NCBI GenBank assembly: GCA_964016885.1
Contig: OZ024740.1
Location: 390,476,001 to 390,540,000 of the forward strand
Direction of reading: 5' to 3'
Length of the DNA stretch: 64,000 nucleotides
Origin: Eledone cirrhosa
Taxonomy: Eukaryota
In this document: positions 2,823 to 54,875 of the stretch, piece by piece
How the letters are laid out: every line of letters begins with the position of its first letter
Numbering within the stretch: position 1 is the stretch's first letter
Notes under the pieces: model-generated
Seen by the model: the letters and a program-made list of their open reading frames with translations, nothing else
Told to the model about the DNA's origin: nothing
Database searches by the model: none
Position numbers and translations under genes: made by a program

Positions 2823-3325
2823 CGGAAAAAATGAAACGAAATTTCATTTCCCACTCTTAGTACGGCTGTTACTTAAATATAAGTATTTACACGTACATAC
2901 ATATATGTATACAGACGTACAGTAGTATGTATATATATATACATACATGCACACATATATATATGTACGTATGGATTCACCGAACATTTATTATAATGCT
3001 CGGTGTGTTTGTAAACAAACATCCCGTATTAAGCCGTAGTGTCCAGCAACCATCGTTGCTCGTTTGTTCAACACTGACAAAGGAACATACTTGTACATAC
3101 TTATATTTAAGTAACAGCCGTACTAAGAGTGGGAAATGAAATTTCGTTTCATTTTTTCCGTTTATCGTTTTCGGTGCACCCGGCCGATTAACCCACTCGA
3201 TATGCAAATTGGGCTACTCAGCCGTTAATATGCATAAGGTAAGTATATACGTTTAACAATCTGGCAGGAAGGAATACGTTGCTGACGATAGCTAATAAGC
3301 TTGAAACTAGTACAGCGTTCCTTTG
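2823..3325 (+). mobile_element. HHR-bearing non-coding element, family A, copy 1 (inverted segment plus direct segment)
   Basis: Homologous to 53705-54347; 2823-3086 is an inverted part of the monomer; cut at 3325 by a Tx1/L1 fragment. Confidence 0.8.
3271..3321 (+). ncRNA. Minimal type I hammerhead ribozyme (family A)
   Basis: ACGTTG-CTGACGA(3282-3288)-T-AGCT-AATA-AGCT-T-GAAA-CTAG-TA^CAGCGT; palindromic stem III ACUAGU; GUA site at 3310-3312. Confidence 0.88.
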
Positions 3326-7331: not shown

Positions 7332-7371
7332 ATTTATACTAGAACTGTTTCATTCGGTAGAAATCATCAGG

Positions 7372-11585: not shown

Positions 11586-11597
11586 TATATATATATA

Positions 11598-12405
11598 TAT
11601 TTAATACATTAACAGAGAAAGCTTTAAGCAATACCCCGACCGGCTTCCGTCTCACTCAACAAACATTAGGATATACCTTAGTATAATCCCAATTATACGT
11701 TTGGGGTGCTAACTATACGTATTTTGCGGATAGACAGTTGTATTATTTTATATGAGACATAATTAAATACATCTCTCTTTCCAAACGATCGTTTCATTAT
11801 AAGTTTTCTACAAGTTGGGAAAATAATGTCCAGGTTATGTAGAAGCCTACACATAGTCTATAGGAATATATGTAGGTGGGCACTTATAAATCATCAGTGG
11901 ATGCCCGACAATATCGATATAAAAAAAACCTTACCGATATTAATATTCAGCGATGGTACCCATCCGTGCTAGAGTGACCGCCAAATTTGAAATTCCAGCA
12001 GTCTCACACAGAGAAATCTCACACCGTCACCAAGCGGGAAGAGGAGGTCATCGCAAAACATAAAAGAATAAAATAATATGCACGCAGGTCAATTAATTCT
12101 TTCAATAATTTTAACCATGCGTGAAGAACTCAATTGGATATAAAAAATAAATATATGCATGTATTATTTATACACGCACATAGGTATTTTCTTAGGCTAA
12201 AAACAGAGACAAGATACCGGAAAAACAATCAATATTTCATACAAAGAATAAATACAGAAAGTCATATCTAAAAAGTATCTGGAAATATTCATCTCTGGCC
12301 AAATCAAGAGTATAATATTTAATACATTAACAGAGAAAGCTTTAAGCAATACCCCGACCGGGTTCCGTCTCACTCAACAAACATTAGGATATACCTTAGT
12401 ATAAT
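11598..12405 (-). mobile_element. HHR-bearing non-coding element, family B, copy 1 (718-nt monomer plus ~85-nt terminal direct repeat)
   Basis: TAATACATTAACAGAGAAAGC.. occurs at 11602 and 12320; flanked by (TA)n; homologous to 52001-53055. Confidence 0.85.
11780..11901 (-). ncRNA. Type I hammerhead ribozyme with branched stem II (family B)
   Basis: Minus strand: TCCA-CTGATGA-T-TTATAAGT..(two hairpins)..ACTTATAA-T-GAAA-CGATCG-TT^TGGA. Confidence 0.85.
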
Positions 12406-12422
12406 ACCACTTATGTATATAT

Positions 12423-20315: not shown

Positions 20316-20659
20316 ATATATAATGAATAAAGTAACCAGGATTAAATTACATTAAATTGTTTAATTGATTTACCATCGTTTCAATCAATCCAACAGGAAA
20401 ATACATGTCTACTGTATTGATTTCTTCAGAATCCATTAAACAACACAAATAACATAATTGTTTACCAACCACATATCCGAACATGTTAATTCCGAAAAAG
20501 TAAACAAATGTAAAATACAGTTGGGTAAACGTTAACATTTTATGGAAGAGTAAACACGCAATTAAACATGTATAAATATATATATAGCTGAATCAATTGA
20601 AGATGATTGCTTCTGACCAGCTGGCAGTCATGCTTCAGGACTCTGCCACCCCGACCATT

Positions 20660-22423: not shown

Positions 22424-23303
22424 CTACATTTTAAATTTATATTTATATTTAAACGTTGAGTTCAATCTATGTCTGCAGCAACTGAATAAATTGCTCCTTA
22501 AATTAAGGGAATTTTTGGACTTTAATATAAAGAATACCTCCTCCACACAGAGATCACATGTCTCTGATGAGGAATTAAAAGGAATCCCTTTTGAGACAAT
22601 ATTCCAAAACATCGAGTACTTAACATTATCTTGTTTAAGTTGCCAGAGTAGACTTGATAGCGAAGTTGAGGATTTTTTGTTTGGATCTGTGAAATAATTC
22701 TTATGATTATTGAAGCGAAGTTTAAATTCTGTCGAGGTGGAACCAACATAGTTGAAAGAATTTAAGTTAGTTTTAACATTACAATTGTATACTACATTTT
22801 TAACTAAGCAATTGTTATTTAACGGACAGTTAGATTTATTTCTACAGTTACAGTTATTTAATTGAATATTGTTTGGGTTATTATTGGTATTTTGGTTAGG
22901 TTTTAAATTCCTATTATTAATTCTGTTAATATTTTGTGCTAAATTTTTGGTGGACGAGTAAGTTAATTTTATAGTATGTCTATTAAAAATTGAATGATAT
23001 TTATGTGTTCTAGGGAATCGTTTGTCAAGAGCATTAAAGAATAGTTTAGCAATATGGGTTTTAATATTTAGTGAGAAAGGAGGGGGGGCAAACCATATTA
23101 TATTTCTAGTTCTATTTCTTTTTCGGCTTTTGGAATTATTGTAATGTTTTCTATTATAGTTGTTAATGTTGTTACCGTAATTAAAATTGTTATTATTTTG
23201 GTTAGTTTGCTTATTATTATCGATGTACTTAATTTTATCACTATATCCTGCTCTAGCTAACGCTTCATTGTAATACTGCGCTTTTTCATCAAAAATATAT
23301 ATG
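22424..23303 (-). CDS. PLE polyprotein C-terminus: end of RT thumb, Cys-rich linker and GIY-YIG endonuclease (open, 5'-truncated)
   Basis: RNIIWFAPPPFS, IFNRHTIKLTYS, CNCR..CPL..C, VVY..YVG..FKLRFNNH, CDLCVEE, LNLRS..CRH; the first ~23 aa of the tracked ORF come from the inverted pLTR. Confidence 0.9.
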
Positions 23304-23670: not shown

Positions 23671-23713
23671 GACGTAAATAAGAAAGTTATGAAAATTGAC
23701 TTACTAAAATTTC

Positions 23714-23792
23714 ACTCCAACTAATTAGTTTCTGTAAGGGGATAAATACAGTTATGTAATACCTGTACAGAAGCCTTACGTCATCAGGGAGT
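23714..23792 (-). ncRNA. Type I hammerhead ribozyme (family C, copy 1)
   Basis: ACTCC-CTGATGA-C-GTAAGG..CCTTAC-A-GAAA-CTAATTAG-TT^GGAGT; palindrome ACUAAUUAGU. Confidence 0.87.
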
Positions 23793-24244
23793 CTATTCTC
23801 AGCTAAGCCACCAGGCAATGCGGGGACACTGGAAGCTTATATAACAATAATTCAGTGGATAGAAAAAAATCGAAAAAATCGAGCGGGGCTAGATTCTAAG
23901 CACTGAAAAATTCGCTGCCTCCTTGGTCAAGTGGCAAATTCAAAAGAATTAATCACGTGACACTGAGGTTAACCAGCTTGGAGTGGGGGTGCTATTAAGA
24001 CAGAGCCTAGCCACTACTATCAGTCACAGTAGTAATTTGGCAAATTTTGCTCAACAAATAATTTGGAGGAGAATATGAAGAATTAATATATCTGCCGACA
24101 TATGTATACAGATGCATACCTACGCTAGCAGATATATATGTTTTGTCTTAGTAACTTTGTAGTTCTATGCAGGGGAATGCAGAACAATTATATGAAAGAC
24201 GTAAATAAGAAAGTTATGAAAATTGACTTACTTACTAAAATTTC

Positions 24245-24323
24245 ACTCCAACTAATTAGTTTCTGTAAGGGGATAAATATAGTTATGTAATACCTGTAGA
24301 GAAGCCTTACGTCATCAGTGAGT
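24245..24323 (-). ncRNA. Type I hammerhead ribozyme (family C, copy 2)
   Basis: Same as copy 1 with one stem I mismatch (ACTCA/GGAGT). Confidence 0.8.
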
Positions 24324-24723
24324 CTATTCTCAGCTAAGCCACCAGGCAATGCGGGGACACTGGAAGTTTATATAACAATAATTCAGTGGATGGAAAAAAG
24401 CGAAAAAATCGAGGGGGCTAGATTCTAAGCACTGAAAAATTCACTGCCTCCTTGGTCAAGTGGCAAATTCAAAAGAATTAATCACGTGACACTGAGGTTA
24501 ACCAGCTTGGAGTAGGGGTGCTATTAAGACAGAGCCTAGCCACTACTATCAGTCACATTCTTATTTACGTCTTTCATATAATTGTTCTGCATTCCCCTGC
24601 ATAGAACTACAAAGTTACTAAGACAAAACATATATATCTGCTAGCGTAGGTATACATCTGTATACATATGTCGGTAGATATATTAATTCTTTATATATAT
24701 ATATATATATAAATACATATATG

Positions 24724-26216: not shown

Positions 26217-26576
26217 ATGTGACAATAAGCTTGCGCTTGTGAAACTGCATCCTAAAGTACAGGGTGAACAAATAGCTATGACAGTGATTTGCTAAAGATA
26301 CCTCGCATATCCAACGCCTGGACAGATCCCGTTTCTATGCAATATTCTGTCTTCAACCGTTGTTAAAACTGCAATATACAGAGAATTACGTAACATTAGC
26401 TGACATTAAGCAATCGTGCTATTGCACTTCTTCAGCAGGAAAGTCCCATACTCAACACTTAGGTCTTACGTTGTGCACAGTCGCATGTACTGCCAGTTTC
26501 CCAAATTTAGCAGTTCTATACCTTACACACACGCATGCACACATACACTCACACACATACATACACACACACACAC

Positions 26577-35366: not shown

Positions 35367-35642
35367 TGTGTGTGTGCGTGTTACTTTATTTATTGACTCA
35401 CAGAAGAATGACAGCCAAAGTTGACCCCATAGCGGAAAACCAGAACAAAAACTGCAAAACATTTCAGTCGACGTTCTTGCAACCTGGCCAACCTACTCCA
35501 AATATTATATATAACGTGTCAAAAGATATTATGTCGTACATCTACAAATTGGTCATTGACACAGAAATGGTTGACTATACATAATCTAAAATATTCATCA
35601 CGTGTATGACGCCAATTCAAACAAAAATCGAAATGTGTATGG

Positions 35643-38600
35643 ATACATTATCAACCCCATGGTCAGCTTAAATACAATATCAACCCCATGGTCAGCTTAA
35701 ATACAATATCAACCCCATGGTCAGCTTAAATACAATATCAACCCCATCGTCAGCTCAAATGCAATATCAACCCCATGGTCAGCTTAAATACAATATCAAC
35801 CCCATGGTCAGCTTAAATACAATATCAACCCCATGGTCAGCTTAAAGACAATATCAACCCCATCGTCAGCTCAAATGCAATATCAACCCCATCGTCAGCT
35901 TAAATACAATATCAACGCCATGGTCAGCTTAAATACAATATCAACCCCATCGTCAGCTTAAATACAATATCAACGCCATGGTCAGCTTAAATACAATATC
36001 AACCACATGGTCAGCTTAAATACAATATCAACGCCATGGTCAGCTTAAATACAATATCAACCCCATGGTCAGCTTAAATACAATATCAACCCCATCGTCA
36101 GCTTAAATACAATATCAACCCCATCGTCAGCTTAAATACATTATCAACCCCATGGTCAGCTTAAATACAATATCAACGCCATGGTCAGCTTAAATACATT
36201 ATCAACCCCATGGTCAGCTTAAATACAATATCAACCCCATGGTCAGCTTAAATACATTATCAACCCCATGGTCAGCTTAAATACATTATCAACCCCATCG
36301 TCAGCTTAAATACAATATCAACTCCATGGTCAGCTTAAATACAATATCAACGCCATGGTCAGCTTAAATACAATATCAACCCCATCGTCAGCTTAAATAC
36401 ATTATCAACCCCATGGTCAGCTTAAATACAATATCAACGCCATGGTCAGCTTAAATACATTATCAACCCCATGGTCAGCTTAAATACAATATCAACCCCA
36501 TCGTCAGCTTAAATACATTATCAACCCCATGGTCAGCTTAAATACAATATCAACCCCATCGTCATCTTAAATACAATATCAACGCCATGGTCAGCTTAAA
36601 TACAATATCAACGCCATGGTCAGCTTAAATACAATATCAACGCCATGGTCAGCTTAAATACATTATCAACCCCATGGTCAGCTTAAATACAATATCAACC
36701 CCATGGTCAGCTTAAATACATTATCAACCCCATGGTCAGCTTAAATACATTATCAACCCCATGGTCAGCTTAAATACAATATCAACGCCATGGTCAGCTT
36801 AAATACAATATCAACCCCATGGTCAACTTAAATACAATATCAACCCCATGGTCAGCTTAAATACAATATCAACCCCATGGTCAGCTTAAATACATTATCA
36901 ACCCCATGGTCAGCTTAAATACATTATCAACCCCATGGTCAGCTTAAATACAATATCAACCCCATGGTCAGCTTAAATACAATATCAACCCCATGGTCAG
37001 CTTAAATACATTATCAACCCCATGGTCAGTTTAAATACAATATCAACCCCATCGTCAGCTTAAATACAATATCAACCCCATGGTCAGCTTAAATACAATA
37101 TCAACCCCATGGTCAGCCTAAATACAATATCAACACCATGGTCAGCTTAAATACATTATCAACCCCATGGTCAGCTTAAATACAATATCAACCCCATGGT
37201 CAGCTTAAATACAATATCAACCCCATGGTCAGCTTAAATACAATATCAACCCCATGGTCAGCTTAAATACATTATCAACCCCATCGTCAGCTTAAATAGA
37301 TTATCAACCCCATGGTCAGCTTAAATACAATATCAACCCCATGGTCAGCTTAAATACATTATCAACCCCATCGTCAGCTTAAAACCATAATCACCCCCAT
37401 CATCAGCTTAAATACAATATCAACCCATGGTCAGCTTAAATACAATATCAACCCCATGGTCAGCTTAAATACAATATCAACCCCATGGTCAGCTTAAATA
37501 CATTATCAACCCCATGGTCAGCTTAAATACAATATCAACCCCATGGTCAGCTTAAATACAATATCAACGCCATGGTCAGCTTAAATACATTATCAACCCC
37601 ATCGTCAGCTTAAATACATTATCAACCCCATCGTCAGCTTAAATAGATTATCAACCCCATGGTCAGCTTAAATACAATATCAACCCCATGATCAGCTTAA
37701 ATACAATATCAACCCCATCGTCAGCTTAAATAGATTATCAACCCCATGGTCAGCTTAAATACAATATCAACGCCATGGTCAGCTTAAATACAATATCAAC
37801 CCCATGGTCAGCTTAAATACATTATCAACCCCATCGTCAGCTTAAATACATTATCAACCCCATCGTCAGCTTAAATAGATTATCAACCCCATGGTCAGCT
37901 TAAATACAATATCAACCCCATGGTCAGCTTAAATACAATATCAATCCCATCGTCAGCTTAAATAGATTATCAACCCCATGGTCAGCTTAAATACAATATC
38001 AACGCCATGGTCAGCTTAAATACAATATCAACCCCATGGTCAGCTTAAATACATTATCAACCCCATCGTCAGCTTAAATAGATTATCAACCCCATGGTCA
38101 GCTTAAATACAATATCAACCCCATGGTCAGCTTAAATACAATATCAACCCCATGGTCAGCTTAAATACATTATCAACCCCATGGTCAGCTTAAATACATT
38201 ATCAACCCCATCGTCAGCTTAAATACATTATCAACCCCATCGTCAGCTTAAATACATTATCAACCCCATCGTCAGCTTAAATACATTATCAACGCCATCG
38301 TCAGCTTAAATACATTATCAACCCCATGGTCAGCTTAAATACAATATCAACCCCATGGTCAGCTTAAATACAATATCAACCCCATGGTCAGCTTAAATAC
38401 AATATCAACCCCATCGTCAGCTTAAATACAATATCAACCCCATCGTCAGCTTAAATACATTATCAACCCCATGGTCAGCTTAAATACAATATCAACCCCA
38501 TCGTCAGCTTAAATACATTATCAACCCCATCGTCAGCTTAAAACCATAATCACCCCCATTATCAGCTTAAATACAATATCAACCCATGGTCAGCTTAAAT

Positions 38601-38890
38601 ACAATATCAACCCATGGTCAGCTTAAATATAATATCAACCCCATGGTCAGCTTAAATATAATATCAACCCCATGGTCAGCTTAAATACAATATCAACCCC
38701 ATGGTCAGCTTAAATACAATATCAACCCCATGGTCAGCTTAAATACATTACCAACCCCATGGTTAGCTTAAATACAATATCAACCCCATCGTCAGCTTAA
38801 ATACAATATCAACCCCATCGTCAGCTTAAAACCATAATCACCCCCATGGTCAGCTTAAATACAATATCAACCCCATCGTCAGCTTAAAAC
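35643..38890. repeat. 29-bp minisatellite, ~112 units (ATCAACCCCATGGTCAGCTTAAATACAAT)
   Basis: Unit starts at 35650, 35679 and onward; no spacers. Confidence 0.98.
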
Positions 38891-39359
38891 CAATCTGGTG
38901 GGGTGATTGATCAGCACTGCTTTATTCTATTACGTTTAGCAGTTACATAACCATGACAATTCAGACGGAGTATTGTGGGAGCATTGTGGGATAGCTTCAC
39001 GTTGATGGCTCTATCTAATGGTTTATTAGTTAGTGTTTCCGATCCGCCCTCGACAATCTACATGGCATATTGATTTAATCTAATCTAATCTGGCCGAGTT
39101 TACACTCGCAAATAAGAAGAACCAGGGCCGCCTCTAGGAGCATTGGATTTGGTGTACTTCATATTTGTTTCGGTTGCTGAATACAATCATGGGTCACTGC
39201 TTCTCATGAAAGTCAATAGTTCTCTTCTAACACGAGCGGGAGCGCCTTTCCATTGTCAATTTACATTGATCATCTGCAAAGCTGCATTGATCTCAGAACC
39301 ACTACACTAGTCTTTCGATGCGTACAGCTGGAACTATTGCCACCCATTGATTTGGCTGG

Positions 39360-52000: not shown

Positions 52001-53055
52001 ATATTTAATACAATAACAGAGATAGCTTAAAGCTAAACTCTGACTGGTAACCATCTCACTCAACAAACATTAGGTTATATTTTAGTATAAACCCAATTTA
52101 AGTGTTTGGGGTGCTAACTATATGTATTTTGTGGAAAGCCAGTTGTATTATTTTATGAGATATAATTAGTTAAAATATATCTCTCTTTCCAAACAATTGT
52201 TTCATTATAAGTTTTCTACAAATTGGGAGAATTTTTCCAGTTTATGTAGAAGCCTAACATATATTCATGTAAGAATATATTTAGGTGGGTACTTATAAAT
52301 CATCAGTGGAAGCCCATTAAACTTTGATATAAGAAAAAATTCTTACCGCAGTTAAAAATCGGGTCTGCTAAGCTGCTCCCTCACGCATCGAATGACCGCC
52401 AAATTTGAAATTCCAGCAGTTTTTGACTGAGGAAGTATTATAGCGTCACTAAGCGGGAAGGGGAGACAACCACGATACACGAAAAGAGAAAAAATGATAT
52501 ACACGCGGGTTAATTAGTTTTTTCAAAAACATTATTAATCCAACGTGTTCAGAACTCAATTGAAATTAAAAAAATAAATGTATGCGTGTATAAATTACAC
52601 ACGCATATAGATATTTTCTTAGTCTAAAAACAGAAGTTGTACCAGAACAACAAACCGCATCTCATAACCGTAGTAAATACGGAAAGTTACGCTTTAAAGG
52701 GGCAAATGGGAATGTAAATCTCCGGCCGAATTAAGATAAAATATTAAACACACACGGGTTAATTAGTTATTTCAAAACTAATATCAATTCCACGTGTTAA
52801 GAACTCAATTAATTTTAAAAAATAAATGTATGCATGTAATTATTTACACAGGCATATATATATTTTCTTAGGCTAAAAACAGAGAAGTTACAACCAAAAA
52901 AACCACAATATCCCATAACAGTAATAAATACGGAAAGTCATATTTATAAGGTACCTGGAAATAAATACCTCTGGCCTATCAAGAGTAAAATATTTAATAC
53001 AATAACAGAGATAGCTTAAAGCTAAACTCTGACTGGTAACCATCTCACTCAACAA
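52001..53055 (-). mobile_element. Family B element, copy 2 (989-nt period including a ~250-nt internal duplication)
   Basis: 66-bp direct repeat at 52001 and 52990; (TA)n flanks. Confidence 0.85.
52187..52311 (-). ncRNA. Type I hammerhead ribozyme (family B, copy 2)
   Basis: TTCCA-CTGATGA-T-TTATAAGT..ACTTATAA-T-GAAA-CAATTG-TT^TGGAA. Confidence 0.85.
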
Positions 53056-54832: not shown

Positions 54833-54875
54833 GTCACTGAAGAGGTCACATAATGTGTGACGAAAGAACTTTGAT
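54833..54875 (+). ncRNA. Candidate minimal hammerhead (family G)
   Basis: GTCA-CTGAAGA-G-GTCACA-TAATG-TGTGAC-GAAA-GAAC-TT^TGAT; short stems I and III. Confidence 0.6.

Follow-up and report, generated by a model that had tools for sequence, protein, structure and literature searches.

A type I hammerhead core whose stem II is branched, in a non-coding Eledone cirrhosa repeat inserted in (TA)n

The repeat and its copies in the window

The window analysed here is a 64,000-nt stretch of the Eledone cirrhosa genome (contig OZ024740.1, positions 390,476,001 to 390,540,000 of the forward strand). Two minus-strand copies of one repeat, copy 1 and copy 2, and a copy of an older family, F4, lie in it. 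Their features are as follows, in window coordinates.

11598..12410, minus strand: copy 1 (subfamily S1), complete insertion made of a 720-nt unit and a further 93 nt
12316..12410, minus strand: duplicate of the 3'-terminal ~93 nt in copy 1 (more-than-unit insertion); 97% identity with 11592-11691
11903..11906, minus strand: GGGC, the 5' side of the putative pseudoknot or attenuator helix
11898..11901, minus strand: stem I 5' arm UCCA; U-A becomes C-G in S3
11891..11897, minus strand: core CUGAUGA (C3-A9); N7 is U, A or C by subfamily
11882..11890, minus strand: U10.1 and stem II 5' arm UUAUAAGU (arm 11889-11882); 10.1-11.1 is G-C in two other subfamilies
11877..11881, minus strand: junction GCCCA, 3' strand of the predicted pseudoknot
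11846..11876, minus strand: hairpin IIa, the covarying branch; double changes in 5 of 12 pairs, P=0.013, pair probability 1.0
11806..11844, minus strand: hairpin IIb; 7-bp base invariant, internal loop, 3-bp top
11796..11804, minus strand: stem II 3' arm ACUUAUAA and U11.1 (arm 11804-11797)
11784..11795, minus strand: GAAA core (from 11795), palindromic stem III ACGAUCGU, H17=U at 11784
11780..11783, minus strand: UGGA, the 3' arm of stem I, where the cleaved RNA is predicted to begin; three insertions start here (L288, L285, L310)
11754..11775, minus strand: hairpin 3' of the ribozyme, GAGAUGUA/UAUGUCUC; kept without double changes
11598..11730, minus strand: conserved 3'-terminal region ending in (TA)n; putative reverse-transcription start region
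52003..53055, minus strand: copy 2, subfamily S2, unit ~990 nt; core at 52306, H17 at 52192, layout as in copy 1
26317..26460, minus strand: F4 copy, motif at 26435; branched architecture and GGGC/GCCC helix, other stem sequences

Copy 1 is bordered by (TA)n tracts on both sides, and its RNA-sense 3' end is at 11598. Its RNA order, UCCA-CUGAUGA-U-UUAUAAGU-GCCCA-IIa-IIb-ACUUAUAA-U-GAAACGAUCGUU-UGGA, is the layout of a type I hammerhead with the cut predicted between 11784 and 11783. Stem II consists of 8 bp opening into a 79-nt two-hairpin domain, the whole domain measuring 95/96 nt in the two copies. This branched-hammerhead repeat has no protein-coding capacity; the longest ORF within the copy 1 element is 58 aa, and a coding role was rejected.

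The initial annotation had given a monomer of ~720 nt and called it longer than typical for animal retrozymes. The length is correct for copy 1, but the unit of copy 2 is ~990 nt because of an internal duplication of ~250 nt, and 720 nt is not unusual, as consensus lengths of 51–972 bp have already been published for animal non-LTR retrozymes. Copies 1 and 2 are 86% identical in the ribozyme, 81% identical 3' of it and 65–72% identical 5' of it, so that the divergence of the flanks reported earlier applies upstream only.

Copy number and subfamilies

In the 3.0-Gb genome, 2,074 exact matches to a core-plus-stem-II pattern were found, and 2,581 cores of the same spacing when the stem II content was left free; the reversed-pattern controls gave 0. 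A 17-mer from the 3'-terminal region had 3,140 genomic copies (control 0). A search for a short-stem-II ancestor carrying the family's stems I and III gave two genome matches, neither of which resembled the family. Three contig sets of unspecified kind contained only many similar copies, a result that is neutral as to expression. Clustering placed 137 of 147 distinct copies in 8 clusters of at least three members, with 4–6% divergence within clusters (0.6% in one); on this sequence grouping there are at least eight subfamilies.

Unit length is 697–743 nt across subfamilies and 989–1009 nt in S2; one S4 unit reaches 846 nt because of an insertion. Dimers of head-to-tail units were seen in five subfamilies, and an array on C5 has 8 hammerhead cores, two of them carrying a 17-nt deletion. 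A cluster of nine S4 copies (L113:463-635 and eight alike), found at several loci, lacks ~9 nt of the core and the start of stem II. A ribozyme-defective S4 master copy may have retroposed.

Hammerhead core and stem III

Inspection of the copies confirmed a type I hammerhead core in the repeat, on the minus strand. Nucleotides C3 U4 G5 A6 N7 G8 A9 and G12 A13 A14 are present and their subfamily states are invariant except at N7. The core is unbroken in 61 of the 70 ribozyme-bearing copies of the 85-insertion sample described below. A15.1-U16.1 and the NUH triplet are also present, the latter as GUU in the window copies and GUA or GUC in other subfamilies; H17 is U, A or C, and G is never a subfamily state. 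The 10.1-11.1 pair is U·U in the window copies and in 5/8 subfamilies, G-C in two and G·U in one. N7, H17 and 10.1-11.1 are the only variable core positions; the rest of the core is unchanged among families and among subfamilies that differ by up to 29%, even though N7 and H17 vary. Copy 1 carries the weaker U·U and GUU. Stem I is short (4 bp plus 1–2 nt) against a 9-bp stem II, helix I is open, and double changes occur in stems I, II and III. The ribozyme likely cleaves only part of its transcripts.

A palindrome-preserving change in stem III, from ACGAUCGU in copy 1 to ACAAUUGU in copy 2, had been noted at the outset. It is joined by a third palindrome, ACGGCCGU, in another subfamily, and stem III covariation is significant (P=0.017). 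The self-duplexes of the three forms were calculated at −10.0, −6.4 and −14.1 kcal/mol, respectively, and the hairpins at 0; ACGGCCGU differs at the central two bases, which can be paired only between two copies. Universal palindromy of stem III was rejected, since S3 has a 9-nt non-palindrome, ACGAGUCGU.

The ribozyme does escape standard searches, as had been expected: no Rfam hammerhead family was found at E≤10 on the 631 bases searched, nor among the 150 window matches listed out of 166.

Folding and covariation of stem II

To the initial annotation we also owe the observation that stem II opens into two hairpins in both copies. The isolated 95/96-nt domains fold in this way with z of −5.5 (copy 1) and −5.7 (copy 2), and 0/200 shuffles were as good; the opposite strand of the copy 1 domain gave z −2.75. 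Folding z values of the whole ribozyme were weak in four copies (−2.4, −2.4, −0.84 and +0.15). RNAalifold, given 32 copies picked from 7 subfamilies (of 145 copies), returned stems I, II, IIa and IIb unaided, with double changes in 7/32 pairs. In a 46-pair structure, 94% of cells were paired vs. 32–51% in slid registers, and 76 cells had double changes vs. 34 after shuffling. Pairs with a double change numbered 9, no more than in the shuffle (10.2; 477/500), a control that ignores relatedness. For this reason we simulated independent changes along the subfamily tree. On a 6-subfamily tree, 8 compensatory events were counted vs. 0.8 expected, a number reached in 0/5,000 simulations. With 8 subfamilies and a stricter count, P was 0.004 for the stem II domain, 0.013 for IIa and 0.017 for stem III, the test structure being drawn from the same sequences as those tested, a bias in its favour. 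Stem II and IIb without IIa were not significant within the family (P=0.11); both are conserved rather than covarying, and the covariation of closing stem II and IIb comes from the older family F4. The top of hairpin IIb changes from GGA/UCC to GGU/ACC in S3 and S5. The change in the IIa base from CCUAC/GUAGG to CCUAA/UUAGG, the latter being the form in copy 2, had been read as covariation; both states are present, but the alignment is ambiguous and the change can be one substitution plus a 1-nt insertion.

F4 is represented by 59 candidates with an 8-bp stem II, AUGCAAUA/UAUUGCAU, a GCCC junction, two hairpins and a GUC triplet; its stem II has been rewritten, yet length and pairing are kept. 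A covariance model built solely on the family of copies 1 and 2 listed the F4 ribozyme in 20/20 loci, as its top 15 matches, with a best E of 5e-6 and five matches with E above 0.1. A BLAST comparison of that family with F4 was not significant, and the two are linked through the covariance model and short motifs common to both. A third family, F2 (1,706 candidates), folds into the same branch with an 84-nt domain and was found by the covariance model in 0/5 loci; as the model was run on selected loci, more distant families are under-sampled. Several families in the Eledone genome thus appear, from their sequences, to share the branched stem II as a hammerhead variant.

The RNAalifold result, the tree-aware nulls and the recovery of F4 by the covariance model support the earlier proposal of selection on RNA structure, and support the view that the branched stem II domain is kept by compensatory change. 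In a repeat copied neutrally, covariation could also arise at the DNA level, if AT-rich hairpins undergo template switching or have their palindromes corrected. Hairpin IIa, which is local, and stem III, which is palindromic, hold most of the double changes, as such an effect would have it, and G·U and A·C among the subfamily states number 5 vs. 2, with no clear preference. We nevertheless consider a DNA-level origin very improbable: double changes also link distant positions, ~80 nt apart in pair 8 of stem II and ~128 nt apart in stem I, the strand-specific core is conserved, and the F4 stem was rewritten as described above. Selection on the RNA fold is the reading retained below.

Flank-junction helix

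The GGGC just 5' of stem I is complementary to the GCCC directly after the stem II 5' strand. The helix is conserved within the family with no double change, and its counterpart in F2 is GGCG/CGCC. In 11 large-stem-II families, six of them represented by one or two copies only, the flank and junction of one family paired over a mean of 5.3 bp, against 3.8 bp when the two were taken from different families (worst P=0.008, with random members). The site of the helix is constant, directly after the stem II 5' strand, in these 11 families of unlike sequence. The helix is predicted to be a pseudoknot or an off-switch, and the branched stem II is probably pseudoknotted.

Pseudoknot-free folding of copy 1 with flanks gave stem II a probability of 0.02, stem I 0.00 and a competing GGGCAU/GUGCCC helix, which is the conserved flank-junction helix, 0.98, as linear and as circular RNA alike; IIa and IIb were at 0.96–1.0. 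In copy 2, with the junction mutated, stem II was at 0.93 and stem I at 0.06. The dominant alternative fold that the initial annotation had envisaged as evidence against its structure is therefore seen in copy 1 but not in copy 2. Nested folding of single copies does not favour stems I and III.

The main rival to the pseudoknot takes the helix as an attenuator that would exclude stems I and II and keep the RNA off until dimer formation or protein binding. Besides the probability of 0.98 in copy 1, it can draw on RNAalifold, which prefers the helix to stem II in F2, on the helix being the first to form during transcription, and on the read-through of the cleavage site in 64/79 insertions (see below). 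Loop I-loop II interactions have an inhibitory role in sCYDV-RPV, where they are said to control cleavage. Nested folding, on the other hand, cannot reach pseudoknots; a helix fixed at one place in 11 sequence-unlike families speaks for a pseudoknot, and the mirror-image internal-loop pseudoknot of toad and termite type III hammerheads is reported to be active (PMC7936874). An attenuator is unlikely on balance, though it is the strongest competitor, and we prefer the pseudoknot.

Insertion ends

Insertions were sampled from the first 100 listed 3'-motif matches on C1 bar the last, which gave 85 distinct insertions. The 3' point is fixed and is followed by TA-like sequence in 76 of them, and the 5' ends are variable. 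Fourteen of the 85 are longer than one unit, and a multimeric or circular template is therefore required. The ribozyme was reached by 79 insertions, 15 of which stop at −14..+6 of the predicted cut and 64 of which read through. The frequency of 5' ends per 100 nt at risk was 1.03 at −14..+6, 0.07 in the next 21 nt, 0.12 in the ribozyme and 0.24 downstream. The excess at −14..+6 had P of 5e-7 and 1e-3, with 9/85 poorly matching long copies censored and copies reused in the at-risk counts. A single end lies in +7..+27, at the base of stem II. Most of the piled-up 5' ends are 6–14 nt 3' of the cut, at a TA-like microhomology ~11 nt 3' of it. When only sites with TA microhomology were compared, the counts were 8/55 vs. 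2/224, 6/333 and 3/72, copies being counted at several sites. Three insertions begin exactly at the predicted cut. A junction pattern, read by eye, gave at least 25 distinct loci among 100 matches listed, a set that overlaps the C1 sample; 21 lie at the cut or 3' of it, and 4 lie upstream.

The simplest reading of the 5'-end excess is that reverse transcriptase (RT) ran off cleaved RNA and the product was trimmed to the nearest TA match, with RT stalling as the alternative. In the latter case the fold would be selected for RT binding or RNA stability, catalysis would be vestigial, and the pile-up would mark stalling at the foot of the structure. The U·U and GUU of young subfamilies would fit a vestigial ribozyme, as would the insertion of Anolis Poseidon in vitro without need of cleavage (PMC11167929) and the report of 8/9 Xenopus dimers uncleaved (bioRxiv 2026.07.22.740005). 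Against this, N7 and H17 vary but the rest of the core stays the same in subfamilies diverged by up to 29% and in other families; stem II, the most stable part, has few ends at its base (one in +7..+27), and three ends coincide with the cut. We judge vestigial catalysis improbable, and run-off on cleaved RNA is preferred.

Relationship to Penelope-like elements

The fixed 3' end, 5' truncation, partial tandems and microsatellite target are the behaviour of a non-autonomous Penelope-like element. In kind, the element is probably a non-LTR retrozyme, and it is likely mobilised by a Penelope-like element. An abundant autonomous Penelope-like family (L178-L207; 37,523 search candidates) encodes an RT and a CxxC linker, matches GIY-YIG weakly, targets (TA)n, and has two alternative 3' ends ~58 nt apart (an optional tail). 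Its hammerhead is of the short-stem type, the same as the motif at 54837 in the window, with G after A15.1. No sequence similarity between it and the repeat was found in 30 loci; because no sequence is shared, this family is a partner in kind only. In the loci examined, no Penelope-like ORF was found directly upstream of an enlarged-stem ribozyme. Opposite-strand neighbours were found at L063, L153 and L054.

A fragment of a second GIY-YIG-like Penelope ORF type is at 22517-23119 of the window (minus strand), with no hammerhead within 1 kb downstream. At many loci (e.g., L159:680-870 and L163:1800-2010) a short repeat lies in (TA)n, and inverted pairs of it form long perfect palindromes. By eye, the branched-hammerhead repeat did not resemble the published octopus Naiad 3' ends, in whose supplement line breaks may mask motifs (PMC8557442). 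In the Naiad_Obim and Naiad_Ovul 3' ends of that supplement, cleavage, GAAA and CUGAUGA blocks were seen by eye in that order; stems I and III are pairable and stem II is not evident, which resembles non-circularly permuted SGC hammerheads.

Proposed mechanism

We find it fairly probable that the locus carries a non-coding, tandem-forming mobile repeat that inserts in (TA)n and has a type I hammerhead core, and that compensatory change maintains its branched 95-nt stem II. The repeat is likely a non-LTR retrozyme dependent on a Penelope-like element for its movement, and its ribozyme likely cleaves a minority of transcripts. Tandem copies would be transcribed and stems I, II and III would form, the 8-nt palindromic stem III probably pairing between two units. 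Docked on the GCCC junction, the GGGC flank would form a pseudoknot in place of the usual loop I-loop II contact, with hairpins IIa and IIb as a scaffold for the pseudoknot junction. Cleavage after GUU, GUA or GUC would yield unit RNAs, which may then become circular. The (TA)n target would be nicked by a Penelope-type RT/GIY-YIG protein, and reverse transcription would start ~185 nt 3' of the cut. On cleaved templates the RT would run off at the cut (about one in five insertions); it would read through uncleaved or circular templates in about four in five. Selection would act between master copies for retroposition success, not on the host.

A wider proposal is put forward tentatively, its chances being somewhat below even. 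It holds that the Eledone genome has an unrecognised class of pseudoknotted type I hammerheads, with a domain II ranging from a 40–52-nt hairpin to an 84–96-nt three-way junction, in at least 10 retroelement families and thousands of copies missed by Rfam. The domain would be a regulatory or protein-docking module that sets the cleaved fraction; insertion 5' ends would record cleavage in vivo, and cleaved and uncleaved RNAs would both serve as Penelope-type templates.

Comparison with known hammerheads

Helix II of natural hammerheads is generally regarded as short, and engineered hammerheads tolerate aptamers on stem II. In the literature searched, which excluded most subscription papers, we found no natural hammerhead with a branched helix II; Lunse et al. 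(2017), on hammerhead variants associated with Penelope, and the Perreault 2011 alignments were outside its scope and may hold examples of a long stem II.

Monomer length, palindromic stem III and the U·U pair are already known features. Published accounts of animal non-LTR retrozymes report units of 51–972 bp, argue for a Penelope origin and describe 1/9 dimers as active (Li et al., bioRxiv 2026.07.22.740005); U·U at the helix II base (axolotl HHR_Amex2) and circular RNAs were reported by Cervera and de la Pena (2020, PMC7229834). The Eledone repeat shares with these retrozymes the non-coding tandem units, each with a type I hammerhead, the occurrence of monomers, dimers and multimers, the low GC and the weak palindromic helix III (PMC7229834; bioRxiv 2026.07.22.740005). 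It differs in helix II, which is described there as ~4 bp with a small loop and is 8 bp with a 79-nt two-hairpin domain in Eledone. The S2 units of 989–1009 nt also compare with published lengths of up to 972 bp, and circular RNA is reported for animal retrozymes whereas the Eledone repeat is known here from genome sequence.

In Penelope-like elements, the hammerheads are described as weakly active, with a helix II of 7–8 bp, a short helix I and a palindromic stem III (Cervera, 2014, PMC4209133), cleavage as protein-assisted with templates mostly unprocessed (Frangieh, 2024, PMC11167929), and targeting of (TA)n and cores that escape descriptors have been reported (Craig, 2021, PMC8557442). With the minimal hammerheads of these elements the repeat shares the helix II of 7–8 bp, helix I of 4–5 bp and palindromic stem III (PMC4209133; PMC8557442; PMC11167929), and with the elements themselves the fixed 3' end, 5' truncation, (TA)n targets, inverted neighbours (at a few loci) and templates that are probably mostly uncleaved. 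Unlike them it has no ORF, a branched domain, a predicted pseudoknot and no homology to the autonomous family tested. Genomic 5' ends are enriched at the predicted cut in Eledone, whereas the Anolis site is reported without RNA-seq ends (PMC11167929). The role of the hammerhead in Penelope-like elements is posed as an open question in published papers.

Pseudoknotted hammerheads have likewise been described with a Watson-Crick helix between the stem I and stem II regions (Perreault, 2011, PMC3088659), and in the HDV-like type III hammerheads of toad and termite a GCCR in a hairpin-capped internal loop pairs with YGGC (PMC7936874). The Eledone ribozyme differs from both in its type I topology, its extension on helix II rather than helix I, and its two-hairpin branch. 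The discontinuous Clec2 hammerhead is similarly hidden from standard searches by a large helix insertion (PMC6155905). According to that review it is a type III ribozyme with a variable helix I insertion of 150–1500 nt in a host 3' UTR; in the Eledone ribozyme, helix II is the enlarged arm, its structure is fixed and the carrier is a mobile repeat.

A conserved three-way junction in helix II with a predicted pseudoknot would widen the hammerhead fold. The excess of insertion ends at the predicted cut offers a readout of cleavage from the genome only, which could be put to the test in any species, and the subfamily series (G-C/GUA, G-C/GUC and U·U/GUU, with and without a palindrome) provides natural mutants for kinetic work.

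Other hammerhead motifs in and around the window

A descriptor scan of 464 kb around the window gave 31 motifs vs. 0 in the reversed sequence. The stem II region was at least 40 nt in 9/31 motifs, and the three that branch all fall inside the window, a stretch that had been chosen for them. With 9/31 motifs of this size in 464 kb, descriptor and Rfam hammerhead counts in animal genomes are likely too low.

A partial tandem at 23690-24390 (minus strand, core 23787, unit ~530 nt) belongs to a hammerhead family with an unbranched stem II of 48–51 nt, and its flank-loop helix changes from GAGAA/UUCUC to GAAAA/UUUUC in L055. Hammerhead-like motifs at 20429 and 20792 (both minus strand) have stem II regions of 40 and 32 nt, the former with a relative in L321. 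At L257:4910 (minus strand) there is a hammerhead with an 82-nt unbranched stem II region and stem III ACAAUUGU, its 5' flank interrupted by another repeat. Short-stem hammerhead-like motifs of other families are present in the window at 3282, 54044, 11245 and 54837 (plus strand) and at 7370 (minus strand). The L231 region, ~165–167 kb left of the window, holds an array of at least nine 310-nt units that have a short hammerhead and represent a small retrozyme of the classical type. The interval 35500-39000 of the window consists of ~111 copies of a 29-nt unit that are 94–97% alike.
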